A stretch of 64,000 nt of DNA, from NCBI GenBank assembly GCA_016186115.1, contig JACPMK010000002.1, positions 8,983 to 72,982 on the forward strand, read 5' to 3'. A model generated the notes under the pieces. It did no database searches. It saw only the letters and a program-made list of their open reading frames with translations, and was not told where the DNA came from. Below are positions 3,725 to 21,077 of the stretch, one piece after another (positions within the stretch are counted from its first letter, which is position 1; each line of letters opens with the position of its first letter). The DNA is from Candidatus Wildermuthbacteria bacterium (GTDB lineage: Bacteria; Patescibacteriota; Minisyncoccia; Minisyncoccales; UBA10102). The translations under genes were made by a program, and so were the position numbers.

Positions 3725-5188
3725 ATGGCTACGATTGAAGAGATAAGAAAAGCAAGGTTAGAGAAATTAACGCGTCTGCAAAAAGCAGGGCTTTTGGCAT
3801 ATCCTTTAAAACTCAAAAGAACTTACAGAATTCAAGAACTTGTGAAAAGTTTTGCTCAATTGGCCAAAAGCCAGAAAGAAATCACCGTAACAGGCAGGAT
3901 CCGAAGTATACGCGAGCATGGCGGTTCCACGTTTTTTAACATTGAAGACGCGACAGGAATGATTCAATCCTATATCAAGCGCGACAGAGTGGGAGAAAAT
4001 GCCTATCAGCTTTTTCTTGAGAATTTCGATATCGGCGATTTCGTACAGGTGCGGGGCATTTTGTTCAATACAAAAAAGGGAGAAAAAACCATTGAGGTCG
4101 CTGATTACAAAATGCTTGCCAAAACATTTTTGCCTCTGCCCGATAAATGGCATGGACTTCAGGACGTGGAAGAAAGATACCGCAAAAGATACCTCGACCT
4201 CATTTTCAATGCAGAGGTAAAACAAAAATTCGAGCAGCGCGCAAAAATTCTCAAAGCCATCCGCGCATTTCTTGACGCAGAGGGATTTTTCGAGGTTGAA
4301 ACCCCAATTCTTCAGCCCTTGTATGGGGGAGCCGAAGCAAAGCCCTTCGTTACTCGTTTGAATGCTTTTGAGATGGATATGTATCTGCGCATAGCACCTG
4401 AACTTTATTTAAAACGTCTGATCGTTGGCGGGTTTGAAAAAGTATACGAAATCGGGCGCGTGTTTCGCAACGAGGGCGTTGACCGTTCGCATAATCCCGA
4501 TTTCACCATGCTCGAATTTTACTGGGCTTATGCTGATTATAAAGATTTGATGAAATTGACCGAGAAATTGTTTCTCCATATTTTTAAGGAATTATTCAAG
4601 AGAGCAAAAATCACGTACGAGGGCAAAGAATTGAATTTTAAAGCCCCTTGGCCGAGAATCGAGTACGTAGATTTGCTCCGCCAATATGCAAAAGTAGACA
4701 TTGAATCAGCAAATAAAGATGCCTTAACGCAGAAGGCAGAAGCATTGGGAGTTCCCGTGGACGCAAAATTCAGCAAGTTTCAAGTGGCTGATGCGATGTA
4801 CAAAAAATATTGCTTGCCTCGCCTTTGGAATCCAACTTTTGTCATTCATCATCCTGCAGGGTCAAAACCGCTCGCCAAGCAATTGGATGATGATCCTTCC
4901 AAGCTCGGATCTTTTCAGCTTATTGCCGCAGGATGGGAGTTGGTCAATGCGTTTTCCGAACAGAATAATCCTTTGCAGCAGCGCAAGATTTTTGAAGAGC
5001 AAGATACATTGCGCAAAGAAGGCATGGGCGAGGCACATCCTTTTGACGAGGATTTTCTAGAAGCCCTTGAATATGGCATGCCCCCGACTGCAGGATTCGG
5101 CATGGGCATTGACCGCCTCACTGCGCTCCTTACTGATTCCCATTCTTTGCGCGAAGTGATTTTATTCCCCACCATGAAACCGAAATAG
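3725..5188 (+). CDS. lysS: lysyl-tRNA synthetase, class II
   Basis: 487 aa. N-terminal OB anticodon-binding domain and class II motifs (FRNEG, GxGxGxDR: GFGMGIDRL). Confidence 0.92.
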   Translation: MATIEEIRKARLEKLTRLQKAGLLAYPLKLKRTYRIQELVKSFAQLAKSQKEITVTGRIRSIREHGGSTFFNIEDATGMIQSYIKRDRVGENAYQLFLENFDIGDFVQVRGILFNTKKGEKTIEVADYKMLAKTFLPLPDKWHGLQDVEERYRKRYLDLIFNAEVKQKFEQRAKILKAIRAFLDAEGFFEVETPILQPLYGGAEAKPFVTRLNAFEMDMYLRIAPELYLKRLIVGGFEKVYEIGRVFRNEGVDRSHNPDFTMLEFYWAYADYKDLMKLTEKLFLHIFKELFKRAKITYEGKELNFKAPWPRIEYVDLLRQYAKVDIESANKDALTQKAEALGVPVDAKFSKFQVADAMYKKYCLPRLWNPTFVIHHPAGSKPLAKQLDDDPSKLGSFQLIAAGWELVNAFSEQNNPLQQRKIFEEQDTLRKEGMGEAHPFDEDFLEALEYGMPPTAGFGMGIDRLTALLTDSHSLREVILFPTMKPK

Positions 5189-7789: not shown

Positions 7790-9553
7790 ATGTTTGAAAC
7801 TCTATTCCCAAATATCATACATTTTCTTTTTTCATTGAGCGCGTTAGCGTTTTGGTCACTTCCGGTTTTGTGGTTGGTTCGTCAAGTGAAGGCAATCAAC
7901 GTATGGCTTTATCTCTGGCAATTAAAGGAATACCATATCGGAAGGTTCATTGACCATTTCCGTACTACAAAAGGGAAAAAGTTAGTATGCAACAAAGCGA
8001 TTGCAATTAAATTTCTATTTTTTCTGATTTTTATAAGTCAAGCAATTTATTTCGTGTTTGCATATCCTCTCGATAAAATTGTATCCCGCCCCGATATTGT
8101 GGAGGATTTTCTTCCATTTTTGCAAGTAGGGAGCTTTATTGGTCTATTCGGCATGTATAGTTTTGAGGCATATAGAGGAATCCGAAATTTTATAAAGAGG
8201 TTATACATTCCTGTTTTCACTAAAAAAATAATTTTCTTATTTTTTATAGGGATTACAGTACAAATCTTTTTGCCATTATCTTTATTCTTGACGCCAGTAT
8301 TTGCCAGTATTTTCCCTGATAGTTTTAAAAGTTTTACTGCTGGTATATTAATGTTTTTTGCGTTAGGGATTTTTGTAGATCTTGCCACTCCTATTATTGT
8401 TTCTGCAATAGTGCTTATCTTTCAACCATTTGCTATGTTGGGGAAGAGACATATTATTGCAAAGGCAAAACAGAAAAGGGCAAATCTGAAAAATTTGAAG
8501 GTAGTCGGTATCACAGGAAGCTACGGAAAAACATCAACCAAAGAATTTCTTTTTACCATATTACAAGAGAAATTTCGTGTATTAAAAACCCCGGAACACC
8601 GGAATTCCGAGATTGGAATTTCGCAAACAATTCTCAATGATTTAAAAGAAGATCACCAAATTTTTATTTGCGAAATGGGAGCGTACAATAAAGGAGGAGT
8701 GAAGTTGCTTGCAGAAATCGCCCAACCCCAGATTGCAATTCTCACGGGGGCAAATGAACAACACTTAGCTCTATTTGGTTCAATGGAGAATCTCTTGAGC
8801 GCAGAGGGTGGGGGAGAGCTAGTTGAGACATTGCCGGAAAATGGAACGGTAATCATAAATGGATATAGCGAAAAACTCAAAACTCAAATCCCCCGCCTTC
8901 GCCAGACCTATAGCGGGCAAGTAAAACTCAAAAAATTTATTGTTGCTGGGGAAGATATGCGAGCAGCGAATGTACGCGTGGAGAAGGAGAATATTTATTT
9001 TGAGGTAGATGGGGTGCAGTTTCAGGTGTCCGTATGTGGCGGCCACAACGTGCAGAATTTGTCGGTCGCCATAGCCGCGGCGCGAGAGCTGGGGATGGGG
9101 CTGAAAGAAATTGCAGAGGCGTGCGAGAAAATTACTCAAGATATGGGTGCAATGAAGTTGAGAAAAGGAATCAATGGGCTCAACATTATTAATGCAACGT
9201 ATTCCGCAAATCCTGATGGGGTTATTGCGGCTTTAGAATATCTGAAATTATGGGAAGGCAAAAAAGTTATTGTGATGCCGTGTCTCATTGAGCTTGGAAT
9301 GGCGTCCGAGCAAGTCCACAAAAAAATCGGCCAGAAAATAGGAGAGGTATGCGACTTGGCGATTATCGTTACCAAAGATAAATTTCAAGCCATCAAAGAA
9401 GGTATGGCTCAAGGCAAGGCAGAAGTTGTGTATTCAGAAAATCCTCAAGCAATTTTTGAAAAGGTAAGGCCTTTCACTGTGTCAGATAATGTGCTTTTGC
9501 TGGAAGGCAGAATACCGCAACAGATTATAAACCAGTTTGTAGAAAAACCATGA
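7790..9553 (+). CDS. murF: UDP-MurNAc-tripeptide--D-Ala-D-Ala ligase (MurF) with an N-terminal polytopic membrane domain
   Basis: 587 aa. Residues ~1-215 are hydrophobic TM-like segments. The Mur ligase P-loop GITGSYGKTSTKE follows, then the central and C-terminal domains. Confidence 0.8.
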   Translation: MFETLFPNIIHFLFSLSALAFWSLPVLWLVRQVKAINVWLYLWQLKEYHIGRFIDHFRTTKGKKLVCNKAIAIKFLFFLIFISQAIYFVFAYPLDKIVSRPDIVEDFLPFLQVGSFIGLFGMYSFEAYRGIRNFIKRLYIPVFTKKIIFLFFIGITVQIFLPLSLFLTPVFASIFPDSFKSFTAGILMFFALGIFVDLATPIIVSAIVLIFQPFAMLGKRHIIAKAKQKRANLKNLKVVGITGSYGKTSTKEFLFTILQEKFRVLKTPEHRNSEIGISQTILNDLKEDHQIFICEMGAYNKGGVKLLAEIAQPQIAILTGANEQHLALFGSMENLLSAEGGGELVETLPENGTVIINGYSEKLKTQIPRLRQTYSGQVKLKKFIVAGEDMRAANVRVEKENIYFEVDGVQFQVSVCGGHNVQNLSVAIAAARELGMGLKEIAEACEKITQDMGAMKLRKGINGLNIINATYSANPDGVIAALEYLKLWEGKKVIVMPCLIELGMASEQVHKKIGQKIGEVCDLAIIVTKDKFQAIKEGMAQGKAEVVYSENPQAIFEKVRPFTVSDNVLLLEGRIPQQIINQFVEKP

Positions 9554-11881: not shown

Positions 11882-12700
11882 ATGGCAAAACGCTATCACA
11901 AGGCAAGGAGCATTAAAAAAAAGCGTTCATTTCTGCGAGGAAAATGGCTTTGGTTTTTTATTTTTCTCTTGGGATTTTTCTCGGGTGCTTTCTATATCTC
12001 GGTGTTTTCTTCTTTTTTTCAGCTTCAGCATATTCAAACATCGGGAAACGCTTCTGAAAACGCGGAATTGCAAGCAAGGGCAGAGCAGCTTCTTTCTCAA
12101 GAAGTTGGATTTCTAAACACCAAAAGTATCCTTGTGCTGAATCTTGAGCGCATCAAAACAGAACTTCTGTCGCAGTTTCCTGCTCTTGCAAGCATTTCTC
12201 TTAAGAGACAATTTCCAAATTCTCTTATCCTTGTTGCACAGGCAAGGGAAAAGGTTGCTTCATGGTGCGCCGATGCAGAAGAAAAACAATGTTTTGCACT
12301 TGATGAGGAAGGGGTTATCTTTTTGAAAGAAAATCATCCTCAAGGATTGCGGATTACTCTTGCCAAGGCCGTGTCTACACCCGTTGCATTAGGAGAACGG
12401 CTGATGGAAAAAGATACCCTTGGACTGCTGCTTCAATTTCAGAAGTCAATGGAGAATTTTCCTCTTTTGCAAAAAGATGGGGCAAAAGTTGTTCAGTTTA
12501 CTATTTTTTCTTCGAATCAGGTACGCGCAAAATTTTCTGAAGGTTGGGAAGCGTATCTCGATCCAGAAGGAGATTTTAACTGGGAAATAGCAAAACTTCA
12601 GGTGGTATTAGAAAAAAAGATCCCTTCCGAAAAGAGGAAGGGCCTTGAGTACATCGATCTCCGCTTCGGCGACCAAGCGTATATTAAGTATTCTCACTAG
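11882..12700 (+). CDS. FtsQ/DivIB-like cell division protein (TM + POTRA)
   Basis: 272 aa. Basic N-terminus, one TM (WLWFFIFLLGFFSGAFYISVF), then a POTRA-like segment (ILVLNLERIKTELLSQFPALASISLKRQFPNSLIL). Confidence 0.6.
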   Translation: MAKRYHKARSIKKKRSFLRGKWLWFFIFLLGFFSGAFYISVFSSFFQLQHIQTSGNASENAELQARAEQLLSQEVGFLNTKSILVLNLERIKTELLSQFPALASISLKRQFPNSLILVAQAREKVASWCADAEEKQCFALDEEGVIFLKENHPQGLRITLAKAVSTPVALGERLMEKDTLGLLLQFQKSMENFPLLQKDGAKVVQFTIFSSNQVRAKFSEGWEAYLDPEGDFNWEIAKLQVVLEKKIPSEKRKGLEYIDLRFGDQAYIKYSH

Positions 12701-14265
12701 AGAGGGGATACGTCTACACGGTAGAGGATGACTTGGCTGTCTTCTTTCTGGAATCTTTTTTGCTCCTGCCAATTGGCAGGAATTTGTTTGTAGTAGTCCC
12801 GCCAAGGATCTCTTCCTACAAACCAAACATAACTGCTTTGCGGCTGAACATCGCTTAGATTTTTTACCGCAATCGTATCTGCCCTTTCATAGATTAAGCT
12901 TGCTTCTCCGAATCCTTTTCTAATCCATTCGGGATCGGCAAAAATTTTGGCGGGGGAGCCAGTTTTGTTGTAATATGAAAAATCAAAATAGGCGTAGAGT
13001 TCGCCAACAACAATTTCATCCCCGGTTTTGTAGCTTGCATTGATTTGACGGCCGACTTCGCGCATGCCGTGTCCTTCGACAGTATCCACTTTGTATATTC
13101 CAAGCAGGAGCAGAATGGTGAAAAGAGGGGCAAACAAATATTTTGCAAATTTATTTTGAAGAGCGGAGACAAAAAGGGCGAGAAGTCCATAAAAGGCAAT
13201 TGATGACCAAACGAAATAGCGGTCTTGGTAGATAGGCGTGCGGATAGAGGAATAAAGAAAAATAAGGTACATGGGAATTAAAAAGTAACCAAGAATAAAA
13301 ATAGTTCCTCGCCATTGCGTTTTGCGTTTTGCAATAACAAATATCGCCATGATTGCTAACGCAATAAGGATCAATTCATGAATATAATTTGGGGTAGGAT
13401 AGGATCCGATGTGGTCAAAATTAATATAGGATAAAAATCGATATAAAGTACTCGGGACTGTTCGGATAGTCATCCATTCTTTTTGGATCCAATAGCTTGC
13501 GCTTACGCGCGTTGTTTGTTGCAAAAGAATTGGTATCCAGAACGCAAAAGCGCCAATAATAGCAATATGAGAAAGAACCCACGGCAGAGAAAATAACTTT
13601 TTGAATTGGATGGAAAATGGCGGCTGATAATTTTTCAGAAAAATGTAGAACCAATGGATGGGTAAAATCAATAAACTAAAATATTGAGTATATGCGGCTA
13701 GAATCATGGCAATAGAATAGAATGCCCACCATTTTGCATTTCGTCCTATGGAATTTTGTTCCGAGGCCCGCAAGAGAAAATATGTTGCTGCTGTTACTAG
13801 AAAAGCCACCAGCATCCACATCCGCGCTTCCTGCGAATAACGGATAAGAAATGGTCCCAGTGCGGTGAAAAGTGCAGCCCACTTGGCAACTTCTGCATTG
13901 AAAATTCTTTTCATCACGATATAGAAAAAGAAAACGACTCCGATTCCCAAGAGAGCCGAAAAGCCGCGTATCGCTAATTCTGAATTCCCAAAAATCTTTG
14001 CCCAGTAATGCAAAATTTCATAGTACAGCGGCGGATGAACATCAAGCATGGTACGGCGCAGTATTTCTTGCGGAGAAAACTGGATCATCATCATGGTAAA
14101 TCCCTCATCGTGCCAGATGGAGCGGCGGGCAATGAAAAGAAACCGAACAAGCGCGGCAAGCGCGAGGATTGCCGCAATAAGGATTCGTTCTTTTTGAAGA
14201 TAGGTTTTAATTGCTGATAGCATTGCTGTAATAGAAAAAGCCATCTTTTGCAGCAAACTGCCCAT
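12697..14265 (-). CDS. GT-C fold membrane glycosyltransferase (GT39/ArnT/PMT_2-like)
   Basis: 522 aa, polytopic. First-loop acidic motif IWHDEGF. Start uncertain, because it overlaps the upstream gene's end by 59 nt. Confidence 0.65.
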   Translation of the reverse strand: MGSLLQKMAFSITAMLSAIKTYLQKERILIAAILALAALVRFLFIARRSIWHDEGFTMMMIQFSPQEILRRTMLDVHPPLYYEILHYWAKIFGNSELAIRGFSALLGIGVVFFFYIVMKRIFNAEVAKWAALFTALGPFLIRYSQEARMWMLVAFLVTAATYFLLRASEQNSIGRNAKWWAFYSIAMILAAYTQYFSLLILPIHWFYIFLKNYQPPFSIQFKKLFSLPWVLSHIAIIGAFAFWIPILLQQTTRVSASYWIQKEWMTIRTVPSTLYRFLSYINFDHIGSYPTPNYIHELILIALAIMAIFVIAKRKTQWRGTIFILGYFLIPMYLIFLYSSIRTPIYQDRYFVWSSIAFYGLLALFVSALQNKFAKYLFAPLFTILLLLGIYKVDTVEGHGMREVGRQINASYKTGDEIVVGELYAYFDFSYYNKTGSPAKIFADPEWIRKGFGEASLIYERADTIAVKNLSDVQPQSSYVWFVGRDPWRDYYKQIPANWQEQKRFQKEDSQVILYRVDVSPL

Positions 14266-19083: not shown

Positions 19084-20208
19084 ATGAAGGACTATTATAG
19101 AATTCTTGGAGTGTCGAAAGACGCTTCCGAAGAAGACATTAAAAGCGCGTACCGTAAATTGGCTCACAAATATCATCCCGACAAGGGAGGGGATGGGGAG
19201 CATTTTAAAGAAATCAACGAGGCGTACCATATTCTTTCTGATCGGGACAAACGCGCTCAATATGATCGTTTTGGCAGGGTGTTCGAAGGAGGGGAAGCAG
19301 GCGGAGCCCAAGGGCCCGGCTTTGGCGGTTTTCGATGGGCATGGGGAAGACCGGCCGCAGGAGCTGGCGCAGATGAAGAGAACATTCCCGAAGGGTTTGG
19401 TTTCGACGCACAGGATTTGGGCGATATTTTTGAAGAATTTTTCGGGGGGGGCGCTGCTCAAAAAACTGTCAGCCCGAAACAGGGCAAGGATATTGAAGTT
19501 GAAATAGAGATTCCTCTTGAGGCAGTTTTGAAGGGTCAGGAAGAAACCTTGGCGCTGCATAAATTTATTAAATGTGAGCGATGCCAAGGGGTGGGAGCGG
19601 AGCCGGGCACACAGGTGAAGGAATGTTTTTCTTGCCGGGGCACAGGAGAAGTTCAGCATATCAAGCGCACAGTCTTCGGTTCTTTTACAAGGGTAGCTCC
19701 TTGTCCTGAATGCGGGGGAGATGGGTTGCGGGCAGAGAAAGTATGTAATGTGTGCAAAGGAGAAGGACGCGTCAAAGGGACGGAAGAATGTAAGGTAGTG
19801 ATTCCTCTGGGCGTGGATAGTCATCAGATTCTTAAAATTGATAAAAGGGGAGACGCAGGGCGGAAAAAGGGTCCGAGCGGGGATTTATATCTTAAGATTT
19901 TTATAAAACCCCACTCTATCTTTGAAAGAAAGGGAGACAATCTTTATCTTGATATTTCTATCCCCTTTTCGCGAGCAGCATTGGGAGGAGAGGTTGAGGT
20001 CCCTACATTGGAGGGCACTGTAATTCTTTTGAAAATTCCATCCGGCACCGAATCGGGAAAGGTTCTTCGAGTTGCAGAAAAGGGCCTGCCTCATTTTGGC
20101 GGATGGGGAAGAGGGCATCTCTTTGTGCATTTGCATATCGAGACGCCAAAGAAAATTACAAAAGAGCAAAAAGCGCTTCTCGAAAAACTCCAGAAGGAGG
20201 GGTTGTAA
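19084..20208 (+). CDS. dnaJ: co-chaperone DnaJ
   Basis: 374 aa. J domain with HPD (KYHPDKGG), G/F-rich linker, four CxxCxGxG zinc-finger repeats. Confidence 0.95.
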
Positions 20209-20237
20209 AATCGGTTTATTTCATGTATCTTAAGAGG

Positions 20238-20260
20238 AGGGCAGAGCCCTTCTTATTTTT
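20238..20260 (+). terminator. weak intrinsic terminator after dnaJ
   Basis: AGGGC-AGA-GCCCT hairpin followed by TCTTATTTTT. Confidence 0.4.
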
Positions 20261-20267
20261 GTGATCC

Positions 20268-20327
20268 GCCCCGCTAGCTCAATTGGCAGATCCGCCCGCT
20301 TGCGGGCGGACTTTTAAGCCGTTGGTT
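20268..20327 (+). pseudogene. tRNA-Lys-derived 5' fragment (copy A) with a GC hairpin replacing the D-stem 3' strand and the anticodon-stem 5' strand
   Basis: GCCCCGC TA GCTC AATTGGCA GA is identical to the intact tRNA-Lys. Then a 20-nt hairpin TCCGCCCG-CTTG-CGGGCGGA, then CTTTTAAGCCGTTGGTT. It stops at the variable loop, 1 nt before the GIY-YIG ATG, with no T arm or 3' acceptor strand. Confidence 0.7.
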
Positions 20328-20328
20328 T

Positions 20329-20589
20329 ATGAAGTACACTGTATACGTAGTCAGGAACAGGGAACGAAACAAAATATACATTGGATACACGAGCAATCTT
20401 ATAAAAAGATTAGCAAGACACAATAAAGAATTACCCGGTAAGAAAAGTTCATTCACAAGTAAGATGAACGGCCACTGGGAAGTCGCGTATTCGGAGGATC
20501 ACAGTACCATAGAAGAAGCAATGGCAAGAGAAAAGTATTTGAAAAGTTATCGAGGTAGAGCGTTTATAAAGAAAATTATCGGACAGTAG
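20329..20589 (+). CDS. small GIY-YIG nuclease-family protein (UPF0213/YhbQ-like)
   Basis: 86 aa. YVVRN..KIYIGYTSNLIKRLARH (GIY-YIG and Arg) plus a downstream Glu (EEAMAREKYLK). No SD; the ATG abuts the tRNA-like fragment. Confidence 0.75.
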   Translation: MKYTVYVVRNRERNKIYIGYTSNLIKRLARHNKELPGKKSSFTSKMNGHWEVAYSEDHSTIEEAMAREKYLKSYRGRAFIKKIIGQ

Positions 20590-20593
20590 TAAT

Positions 20594-20666
20594 GCCCCGC
20601 TAGCTCAATTGGCAGAGCATCGGCCTTTTAAGCCGTTGGTTGCGCGTTCGAGTCGCGCGCGGGGCA
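20594..20666 (+). tRNA. tRNA-Lys (anticodon UUU)
   Basis: Manual cloverleaf. Acceptor GCCCCGC/GCGGGGC; D arm GCTC-AATTGGCA-GAGC; anticodon arm TCGGC-CTTTTAA-GCCGT; variable loop TGGTT; T arm GCGCG-TTCGAGT-CGCGC; discriminator A. CCA is not encoded. Confidence 0.9.
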
Positions 20667-20673
20667 CTCATCA

Positions 20674-20751
20674 TAGCTCAATTGGCAGATCCGCCCGCTT
20701 GCGGGCGGACTTTTAAGCCGTTGGTTGCGCGTTCGAGTCGCGCGCGGGGCA
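20674..20751 (+). pseudogene. tRNA-Lys-derived copy C (hairpin variant) lacking the 5' acceptor strand
   Basis: Positions 20674-20726 are identical to 20275-20327 (a 53-nt direct repeat including the GC hairpin). An intact T arm and 3' acceptor GCGGGGC-A follow. Preceded by CTCATCA instead of GCCCCGC. Confidence 0.7.
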
Positions 20752-20870
20752 CCCTTCGACTCCGCTCAAGGTAAACTTCTACAAGACATGCTTAGCCTGT
20801 CTATTCTATTTGACGGATGGGGTTGGTCTGATGTAAGTTAAAGTAACCTATCAAAAAGGGGGGACAAAAG

Positions 20871-21077
20871 ATGTATCCCACAGCCGTAGAGAGAGATTTT
20901 AGAGTTCTTGAGAAAGCTGCGCACAGTAGCAAAATTTCTGTGCAAGAGGCAAGTGGGGCATTGATCTGTCATGCCCATCGTAGGGCTGGTGGGGATGTGG
21001 ACGAATCAATCCTCGCCCTCGAGGGATTGGGATTGATCAAGAGGGAGGGGAATACTTTGGTGCTCAATGGAAAATAG
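20871..21077 (+). CDS. small hypothetical protein (possible winged-helix)
   Basis: 68 aa. AAAAGGGGGG SD upstream and a terminator downstream. The ending LALEGLGLIKREGNTLVLNGK resembles a wHTH wing. Confidence 0.5.
   Translation: MYPTAVERDFRVLEKAAHSSKISVQEASGALICHAHRRAGGDVDESILALEGLGLIKREGNTLVLNGK

Follow-up and report, generated by a model that had tools for sequence, protein, structure and literature searches.

What kind of event leaves a tRNA gene enclosed between two incomplete copies of itself, together with the gene of a small nuclease-like protein, and how can a cell tolerate the result? The question is raised by a 64,000-nucleotide stretch of a Candidatus Wildermuthbacteria genome (contig JACPMK010000002.1 of assembly GCA_016186115.1, forward-strand positions 8,983 to 72,982), referred to here as the window. 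Its sole tRNA gene, which is also its sole Rfam family match at gathering score, is a tRNA-Lys(UUU) that adjoins an open reading frame (ORF) of the GIY-YIG family. The locus is probably one copy of a widespread selfish cassette that nests in tRNA genes and is built around a stand-alone mini GIY-YIG nuclease gene. The specific steps by which such a cassette might home are proposed with less confidence than this overall reading. The locus is composed of the following features (nts, nucleotides; aa, amino acids; positions are those of the window):

20268-20290, plus strand: copy A part 1, GCCCCGCTAGCTCAATTGGCAGA, tRNA-Lys nts 1-23, identical in 23/23 positions to 20594-20616 of copy B
20291-20310, plus strand: hairpin of copy A, TCCGCCCG-CTTG-CGGGCGGA, 20 nts, substituting tRNA nts 24-31
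20311-20327, plus strand: copy A part 2, CTTTTAAGCCGTTGGTT, tRNA-Lys nts 32-48, identical in 17/17 positions to copy B
20329-20589, plus strand: GIY-YIG ORF, 86 aa, intact and stand-alone, matching PF01541
20594-20666, plus strand: copy B, a canonical, functional-looking tRNA-Lys(UUU), called by ARAGORN, with 67.2 bits on the Rfam tRNA model and a cloverleaf as its minimum free energy (MFE) fold
20667-20673, plus strand: 7-nt spacer ctcatca, in place of the 5′ acceptor strand of copy C
20674-20751, plus strand: copy C, made of tRNA nts 8-23, the hairpin (20690-20709) and nts 32-73
20275-20327 and 20674-20726, plus strand: 53-nt direct repeat, 100% identical, common to copies A and C

Copy A extends over 20268-20327. 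Its first part holds the 5′ acceptor strand, the 5′ strand of the D stem, the D loop and GA, and its second part spans the anticodon loop, the 3′ strand of the anticodon stem and the variable loop. This second part doubles as the leader of the ORF, whose ATG begins after a single intervening nucleotide, and no Shine-Dalgarno sequence was found in it. The ORF ends in a double stop and copy B starts 4 bases further. In copy C, the T arm, the 3′ acceptor strand and the discriminator base are intact, with 42 of 42 nts identical to copy B, or 43 of 43 if the following base, which lies outside the tRNA, is counted. The segment of copy B that is missing from both A and C is exactly GCATCGGC (tRNA nts 24-31), which comprises the 3′ strand of the D stem, position 26 and the 5′ strand of the anticodon stem. 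A preliminary description of the locus had given the same coordinates and sequences, the 53-nt repeat and the exact replacement of these nts by the hairpin, and all of these hold. It had also maintained that the hairpin variant is unable to fold as a cloverleaf, in agreement with the MFE structures: only copy B folds in this way and the hairpin forms in those of A and C. On the Rfam tRNA model, copy C reaches 21.4 bits, under the gathering score of 29, and copy A is undetected; ARAGORN calls neither of them. The hairpin variant, in short, does not score as a bona fide tRNA. Searched with Rfam at E ≤ 10, positions 20000-21000 contain no group I intron match and no RNA family except tRNA B, and at gathering score the whole window holds no intron RNA. 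The ORF is bounded by tRNA-derived DNA and lies outside an intron or intein, as expected of a free-standing endonuclease gene.

The predicted protein has the features of an intact nuclease core. NCBI holds entries that are 100% identical to it and to the DnaJ of the window, a MAG-derived sequence. It matches Pfam PF01541 (GIY-YIG) with 57.3 bits (cut-off 22.6, E = 2e-15), and Y6, Y17, G19, R27, H31 and E68, which are among the residues invariant in a 12-sequence alignment, are all present together with the other invariant ones. By analogy with I-TevI, we take Y6, Y17, R27, H31 and E68 to be the catalytic Tyr, Tyr, Arg, His/Tyr and metal-binding Glu. The AlphaFold model (predicted local distance difference test, pLDDT, 87) adopts the alpha/beta GIY-YIG fold, and the nearest solved structures retrieved by Foldseek are the UPF0213 proteins BH0048 and EF2693, the nuclease domain of Slx1 and the catalytic domain of I-TevI. 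The family is large, with 2181 clusters (50% identity) at E ≤ 1e-10 and 15197 at E ≤ 1e-3, and its members are mainly 80-125 aa long. In its wider sense it reaches Bacteroidota-like contigs, for example next to a Por_Secre_tail protein (L015), and its only matches in PHROGs are weak ones to the 'homing endonuclease' annotation.

The arrangement recurs at tRNA-Lys genes of many other genomes. The first distant homologues of the ORF found by protein search displayed the same layout around other tRNA-Lys sequences (L001, L007, L008 and L016). Species-representative genomes were then searched with the pattern TCCGCC-N(2-10)-GGCGGACTNTTAAGC. This pattern fixes the stem sequence by design, and it is from the protein-ascertained sample described further below that hairpin variation is assessed. 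Matches were found on at least 119 contigs, chiefly of Patescibacteria, against about 10 expected by chance according to an arithmetic estimate; among the matches listed there are 157 hairpin sites, nearly all with a tRNA D arm 5′ of the hairpin. A set of 136 loci, consisting of 119 pattern loci, 16 loci found via the protein and the window, was annotated with ARAGORN and a hidden Markov model of the ORF family. The GIY-YIG ORF is present in 89 of the 136, the pattern part being the matches listed. With a for a 5′ fragment carrying the hairpin, O for the ORF, B for an intact tRNA-Lys and c for a hairpin copy with the 3′ half, the layouts are distributed as follows among the matches listed:

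aOB: 33 loci
aB: 20 loci
BOc: 6 loci
Bc: 5 loci
aOBc, the type of the window: 4 loci, plus variants

There are also arrays, among them aOaOB and aaaaaBOc; in general, the elements are ordered a(n)-[O]-B-[O]-c(n). Loci in which the ORF lies 5′ of B are of type I; here the ORF stops at the TAG formed by U8-A9-G10 of the tRNA (nts 8-10) in 24 of 50 loci, and a stop located inside the tRNA implies co-transcription of the two genes. In type II loci, in which the ORF lies 3′ of B, the stop is within the D loop or the hairpin of c; hence the AT-rich sequence that replaces the 5′ acceptor strand in many c copies is the end of the ORF. Shine-Dalgarno-like motifs are rare throughout the family (2 of 52 leaders). 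Some of the metagenome-assembled genomes (MAGs) bear labels from outside the Candidate Phyla Radiation (CPR), Gammaproteobacteria among others, and these labels are doubtful. For example, L031, labelled Gammaproteobacteria, has the same Leu-tag, Lys-ctt, Arg-tcg and Arg-tct cluster as the Shapirobacteria loci L048, L052, L063, L072, L125 and L128, and its nearest ORF relative is also in the Shapirobacteria group. Its taxon label may be wrong, and cross-phylum transfer is not claimed from such labels.

The association is not restricted to tRNA-Lys. In a sample of 80 metagenome loci that were picked by protein similarity alone, and not by the hairpin, a tRNA gene lies on the same strand within 150 nts of the ORF in 44 loci. 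The isoacceptors concerned are those for Lys, Asn, Met, Val, Ala, Asp, Arg, Phe, Gln, Glu and Leu, and the real count is higher than 44 because intron-bearing tRNA-Asn genes escape detection. Besides tRNA-Lys, the cassette logic is evident in this sample at tRNA-Asn, Met, Val, Ala, Glu, Asp, Cys and Leu. A GC hairpin is found within 130 nts of the ORF in 58 of the 80 loci. In addition, the ORFs cluster by tRNA identity, with nearest-neighbour agreement in 86 of 108 cases (chance 0.41), a figure that is inflated by the Lys-ascertained loci it includes. The strong association of the small GIY-YIG family with tRNA genes elsewhere lends weight to the earlier suggestion that the locus is the footprint left when a GIY-YIG ORF was inserted at a tRNA gene. 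The composition of such loci can be elaborate: in L094 (5150-5650, minus strand), tRNA-Glu 5′ fragments, in which the whole anticodon arm has given way to the UUCG-tetraloop hairpin TCAGCC-TTCG-GGCTGA, form an array, after which come an intact tRNA-Glu, then a GIY ORF from a different subfamily, then a c copy that contains two hairpins. 

Two tRNA-Asn loci deserve separate mention. In L160 (~950-1200) and L161 (~950-1100), a GIY cassette is located 5′ of a tRNA-Asn(GUU) that is itself interrupted after nt 35, and the long insert resembles the group I introns found at position 35/36 in Patescibacteria (bioRxiv 10.1101/2025.07.03.662931). To judge from this resemblance, two distinct selfish elements would occupy one tRNA gene.

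The hairpin 20-mer of the window occurs at only 2 places in the 64 kilobases (kb), in copies A and C, where shuffled sequences predict 0. Folded alone, it forms an 8-bp stem of -16.6 kcal/mol (z = -4.25). It is a member of a TCCGCC...GGCGGA family with the consensus TCC-GNC-RRYY-GNC-GGA. The TCC...GGA-anchored sites that adjoin ORFs comprise 146 perfect stems and 7 with one mismatch. The inner triplet of the stem changes together with its complement (GCC 113, GTC 18, and also CGC, CGA, GGC, CGG and others), the loop has 4 nts in 118 of the 146 stems and is mainly RRYY, and added bases lengthen the stem, as in the 8-bp version of the window. This covariation indicates that the stem is under selection and is kept by compensatory changes. 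Stem extension and loop variation further imply a fold of a single strand, as RNA, single-stranded DNA (ssDNA) or a cruciform, and not a duplex site of fixed spacing. An asymmetry between G:U and A:C mismatches would separate an RNA from a DNA hairpin, with just the 7 mismatched stems to compare.

Canonical hairpin copies keep close to the cassette, 181 of 194 lying at most 300 nts from a tRNA or GIY feature, in a sample of which such features occupy 16% of the bases. Their position in the cloverleaf depends on the tRNA. In tRNA-Lys and tRNA-Val, the hairpin replaces or interrupts nts 23/24-31/32; in tRNA-Asn, the D loop, the whole D arm or nts 25-34; in tRNA-Met, nts 38-47; in tRNA-Ala and tRNA-Glu, the whole anticodon arm; and in degenerate tRNA copies, the T loop. 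Because it accompanies the ORF family to other tRNAs and to other cloverleaf positions, the hairpin is a part of the cassette and not of the host gene. The tRNA-Asn 5′ fragments of L164 and L166 contain a nested hairpin, TCCGCCA[TCCGCCAGTTGGCGGA]GGCGGA, about 40-70 nts 5′ of the ORF, and it looks as if the hairpin could be copied into itself.

The tRNA-derived parts of the cassettes, on the other side, are usually local as far as sequence comparison can tell. Upstream copies are identical to the local tRNA across nts 1-23 in 47 of 92 cases, and downstream copies differ from it by at most one mismatch across nts 32-76 in 23 of 42, in a collection in which 99 tRNAs at loci have 48 distinct acceptor stems. 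Position 34 drifts in the copies, which have ATT or GTT where B has TTT, and the spare copies are therefore not decoders.

Comparison with related genomes reveals empty sites. The nearest DnaJ relatives of the window have dnaK-dnaJ followed by one canonical tRNA-Lys(UUU), without ORF or fragments, at 70% DnaJ identity in L139 and L140, in which grpE and hrcA are located upstream, and at 65% in L142 and L144. The preliminary description had envisaged aligning the locus with relatives in search of such sites, and what the alignment finds is the single canonical tRNA-Lys. Similarly, the syntenic Doudnabacteria loci L020 and L117 are a clean case of presence and absence of the ORF plus c. Alleles with and without the ORF thus exist at one locus, between species. 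The cassettes also turn over: L075 reads a-O-a-B; L054 reads a-B with a remnant of the ORF 3′ end, an instance of ORF decay; ORFs are truncated or frameshifted in L053, L058 and L114; and different GIY subfamilies have been inserted serially 5′ of one tRNA in L119, L042 and L053. In similarity space, the Lys ORFs of type II are interspersed with those of type I, which implies that the ORF has switched sides repeatedly. In L007, an a-O-B-c arrangement occupies the same position next to dnaJ as in the window. The 5′ acceptor strand of its a copy pairs 7/7 with the 3′ acceptor strand of its c copy, and the acceptor stem of its B copy differs. The DnaJ fragment and the tRNA features of this locus give opposing hints on whether a/c or B is native.

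These observations can be accommodated in a scheme in which the cassette would behave much like a free-standing homing endonuclease gene. The ancestral state would be a single canonical tRNA-Lys(UUU) 3′ of dnaJ, and the present one an ORF and a working tRNA-Lys, B, placed between a 5′ piece, A, and a 3′ piece, C. The nuclease would help to break a tRNA gene that is still naive, at the segment where the hairpin later sits or close to it, and a cassette-bearing allele would serve as the repair template, with the conserved D-arm (nts 8-23) and anticodon-loop (nts 32-4x) stretches of the repeats as homology arms. Hairpin, ORF, tRNA and hairpin would be copied in, and since one tRNA copy stays functional, the host would be unharmed. 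A donor of the form repeat-ORF-tRNA-repeat would yield the window exactly, as nts 1-7, repeat, ORF, B, repeat and nts 48-76. Repair from such a donor would also be the reason why a and c of L007 are complementary halves of one tRNA-Lys and B is another. If a break end paired with the intact copy instead, aOB or BOc forms would result. Unequal recombination may give rise to arrays, and gene conversion may keep the arms like the local tRNA. Recombination or conversion between repeats would flip the ORF across the tRNA, with eventual decay of the ORF leaving hairpin-bearing fragments behind. The hairpin, for its part, would put the spare copy out of use as a tRNA, by precluding the cloverleaf, and also as a target site, and by breaking up the homology with the working copy into short stretches it would slow the loss of the ORF by recombination. 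The preliminary description had raised, among other readings, that of a nuclease-resistant immunity copy of the target, which is conceivable.

A more specific role for the hairpin can be imagined, which we regard as speculative and rather doubtful: the mini GIY-YIG protein could have the hairpin as its substrate in cis and act, in the manner of Slx1, as a structure-specific nuclease on the hairpin extruded as a cruciform or formed in ssDNA. The hairpin-ORF(-tRNA)-hairpin unit would then represent a new class of hairpin-dependent mobile cassette, in which the universally conserved D-arm and anticodon-loop stretches of tRNA genes would be portable homology arms and the hairpin would be copied into new tRNA-like sites. 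Both the nested hairpins of L164 and L166 and the occurrence of hairpins in the place of D arms, anticodon arms and T loops are consistent with this idea. If the two repeats of an aOBc locus recombined, the ORF would be lost together with the working tRNA and a dead hairpin variant would stay behind, a consequence that would presumably work as an addiction mechanism.

Several points weigh against the selfish-cassette reading and its homing steps. The catalytic domain fills all 86 aa, and such a core has no room for a DNA-binding domain that would read a long target; no DNA-binding module accompanies it. Copy B retains the segment that the hairpin substitutes, so that, if cleavage took place there, there would be no obvious immunity, unlike in classical homing. 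Since the position of the hairpin differs among tRNAs (D loop, D arm, nts 24-31, nts 38-47, anticodon arm, T loop), it is not obvious either that the cleavage site and the hairpin stand in a single fixed relation. The ORF tree contains a partly vertical signal, the nearest neighbour of an ORF belonging to the same taxon in 8 of 31 cases (chance 0.075), and no near-identical ORFs were found across species, identity being ~80% at most. Long vertical residence with concerted evolution could account for much of the pattern. Finally, the empty sites are known only at 65-70% DnaJ identity, that is, from comparisons between species, and no presence/absence polymorphism was found at the strain level, where the Logan contigs of the window organism end at the repeat.

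It is possible, if on the doubtful side, that the hairpin mainly serves the ORF at the RNA level, as a protector of the mRNA end or as a module for processing or translation, and that the tRNA fragments are by-products. The tRNA-processing enzymes would then free the ORF message from a tRNA precursor, which is compatible with the selfish-cassette reading. The hairpin always flanks the ORF, its end lying a median of 18 nts from the ATG in type I loci and the hairpin being 0-40 nts after the stop in type II; the scarcity of Shine-Dalgarno-like motifs, the single-stranded CUUUUAAGC that follows the hairpin in Lys cassettes, the match of stem extension and loop variation to a single-strand fold and the ORF stop inside the tRNA all point the same way. 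Hairpins are also present, however, in copies far from an ORF, such as copy C of the window and a or c arrays without ORF, degenerate copies have them in T loops and in acceptor regions, and the 7 mismatched stems are too few for the comparison of G:U with A:C. Another role at the RNA level had been proposed in the preliminary description, namely that of an intrinsic terminator exapted from the anticodon loop, since the window has an 8-bp GC stem with CUUUU after it. This proposal has become very improbable. The terminator rule does not flag the hairpin but flags the intrinsic terminator of the dnaK-dnaJ operon 40 nts upstream (20234-20254, plus strand; GAGGAGGGCAGAGCCCTTCTT then a T run, 13 nts 5′ of copy A). 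Cassettes with the anticodon CTT have the tail CUCUUAA, and the sequences after the hairpin at tRNA-Asn, Met, Val, Ala and Glu are GGTAGAGC, CGTAGG, TGACAG or AGGTCG, without U runs. In aOB loci, moreover, the hairpin is placed 5′ of the only tRNA-Lys of the locus, with no c copy, and efficient termination there would silence B, because B is presumably transcribed from upstream of copy a.

The remaining explanations concern the history of the locus. An old, vertically inherited and possibly host-useful operon of a small nuclease and tRNAs, with pieces kept similar by gene conversion and without mobility, would explain the partly vertical signal in the ORF tree, the lack of near-identical ORFs across species, the tight overlap of ORF and tRNA and the conservation of the active-site residues. 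We nevertheless consider it unlikely: presence is patchy among close relatives, ORFs are frameshifted, truncated or lost, different GIY subfamilies have been nested serially at one tRNA (L119, L042, L053), the same cassette logic applies at more than 10 different tRNAs, and a and c of L007 come from another tRNA lineage than B. The preliminary description had preferred a hairpin-variant tRNA-like gene that existed first and was then split by the insertion of the GIY-YIG ORF with a tRNA-Lys, with duplication of a 53-nt target. It is the most economical account of the window sequence taken by itself; some hairpin variants, L147 and L112, are complete and possess both acceptor strands, and the a and c copies of L007 complement each other as halves of a single gene other than B. 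The syntenic relatives, however, carry a single canonical tRNA-Lys and no variant, most loci have a alone or c alone (see the layouts above), a and c thereby occurring independently, and the hairpin goes with the ORF family to other tRNAs and cloverleaf positions as a property of the cassette. Accordingly, a pre-existing variant gene that was later split seems quite unlikely. The idea that A and C can be the two halves of one tRNA gene fares better by itself and is supported by the 7/7 acceptor pairing in L007. It is hardly credible that the whole arrangement arose as an artefact when a repeated tRNA region was assembled. Short-read assemblies do break at the hairpin repeat: the independent Logan contigs of the window organism (L136-L138) all stop 96 nts past the dnaJ stop, within the hairpin of copy A, and such a break is expected because the hairpin is part of the repeat. 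The same contigs nevertheless reproduce the junction from dnaJ to copy A up to the hairpin, and the same architecture recurs independently in over 100 MAGs and metagenome contigs.

Among known systems, the closest in working to the selfish cassette are the free-standing GIY-YIG Seg endonucleases of T-even phages, notably SegB of the T4 tRNA gene cluster, for which breaks in the T4 tRNA region are said to favour inheritance of the ORF and its flanks. In both cases, a GIY-YIG ORF is located among tRNA genes and outside an intron or intein. For Seg-type endonucleases in general, breaks in the tRNA region favour the inheritance of the ORF with its flanks (PMC2988022), and SegB is reported to drive segmental amplification of the tRNA region, which resembles the tandem arrays of the cassettes (PMC13096335). 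Seg proteins differ in having ~200 aa or more and DNA-binding domains, where the window ORF is an 86-aa catalytic core, and they belong to phages, where the cassettes reside in cellular (CPR) genomes. We know of no hairpin-substituted partial tRNA copies at Seg loci. The UPF0213/COG2827 proteins (EF2693 = 1ywl, BH0048 = 1zg2) have the same size and a single domain, and are the best sequence and fold match among solved structures (E 4.7e-6; Foldseek rank 1). The similarity is remote (~20% identity), and they are structural-genomics proteins without assigned function or described genomic context. The nuclease domain of Slx1, an enzyme that acts on branched DNA, shares the GIY-YIG core (template-modelling score, TM, ~0.6; 30-33% identity across ~73 residues). 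Unlike the cassette, which has neither, Slx1 possesses a RING domain and needs Slx4.

Elements that integrate into tRNA genes with duplication of the attachment (att) site also leave a partial tRNA copy at the flank of the insert and restore a working tRNA, and the fragments that they generate confuse tRNA annotation (PMC9897764). The cassettes differ from them in having no integrase, an insert of only ~0.3-0.4 kb, both 5′ and 3′ fragments, and a conserved hairpin in these fragments in place of a cloverleaf segment. A second comparison is with 'fractured genes', in which a host gene is split by a free-standing endonuclease gene (PMC2677866), and with the group I introns of Patescibacteria tRNA genes (bioRxiv 10.1101/2025.07.03.662931). 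There too, selfish endonuclease-linked insertions split or occupy essential genes while sparing their function, and CPR tRNA genes are hot spots for such elements. In the cassettes, function is kept by a duplicated intact tRNA and not by split inteins or a self-splicing ribozyme. No description of the present arrangement was found in the full-text literature, with subscription-only papers outside the reach of the search; the feature for which no precedent was found is the conserved hairpin that replaces a cloverleaf segment in duplicated tRNA pieces.

Other kinds of element were considered and rejected. An integrase-mediated tRNA island does not fit an insert of ~0.4 kb that holds only an 86-aa ORF and a tRNA, nor the predominance of 5′ fragments. 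An ssDNA transposon of the IS200/IS605 type would have hairpins at the flanks of the unit, as here, but the sole ORF encodes a GIY-YIG protein and not an HUH enzyme (TnpA). A group I intron with its endonuclease in a tRNA gene was dismissed for want of a ribozyme match in the Rfam searches of the locus (E ≤ 10) and of the whole window (gathering score). A phage origin was abandoned in view of 0 hairpin-pattern matches and 4 weak protein matches in viral contigs, together with the weak PHROGs matches. A genome-wide palindromic repeat, comparable to repetitive extragenic palindromes (REP) or DNA uptake sequences (DUS), was set aside because the hairpin is restricted to the vicinity of tRNA and GIY features and the window has just two copies of it.

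If the selfish-cassette reading is true, a large and so far function-less family of mini GIY-YIG proteins gains a defined life style, and many tRNA pseudogene fragments and tandem tRNA-like arrays in CPR genomes are explained. The cassettes would then be recognizable in annotation by a signature, a D arm followed by TCCGCC-N4-GGCGGA and an anticodon loop, and their repeats would also account for the breaks of short-read assemblies at these loci. An 86-aa nuclease, a hairpin of 16-20 nts and a tRNA gene would make a very small experimental system in which to ask how a catalytic core without DNA-binding domain finds its target, and how an element occupies an essential single-copy gene without killing its host.

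Some minor observations concern the surroundings of the locus and stray hairpins. No sigma-70-like promoter was found in the stretch between dnaJ and copy A. A 68-aa ORF lies at 20871-21077, ~120 nts 3′ of copy C. Elsewhere in the window, an 18-nt perfect palindrome, TCCTGCCAATTGGCAGGA, with the TCC...GGA shape is found at 12764-12781; it is located inside a 522-aa ORF of the minus strand (12697-14265) and is probably a coincidence. In L026, two canonical hairpins, TCCGCCAGCYGGCGGA (4038-4053 and 4617-4632), are separated by more than 1.5 kb from the nearest tRNA or GIY feature and are located within or beside a GTPase-like coding region with a GKSTLFN motif nearby.

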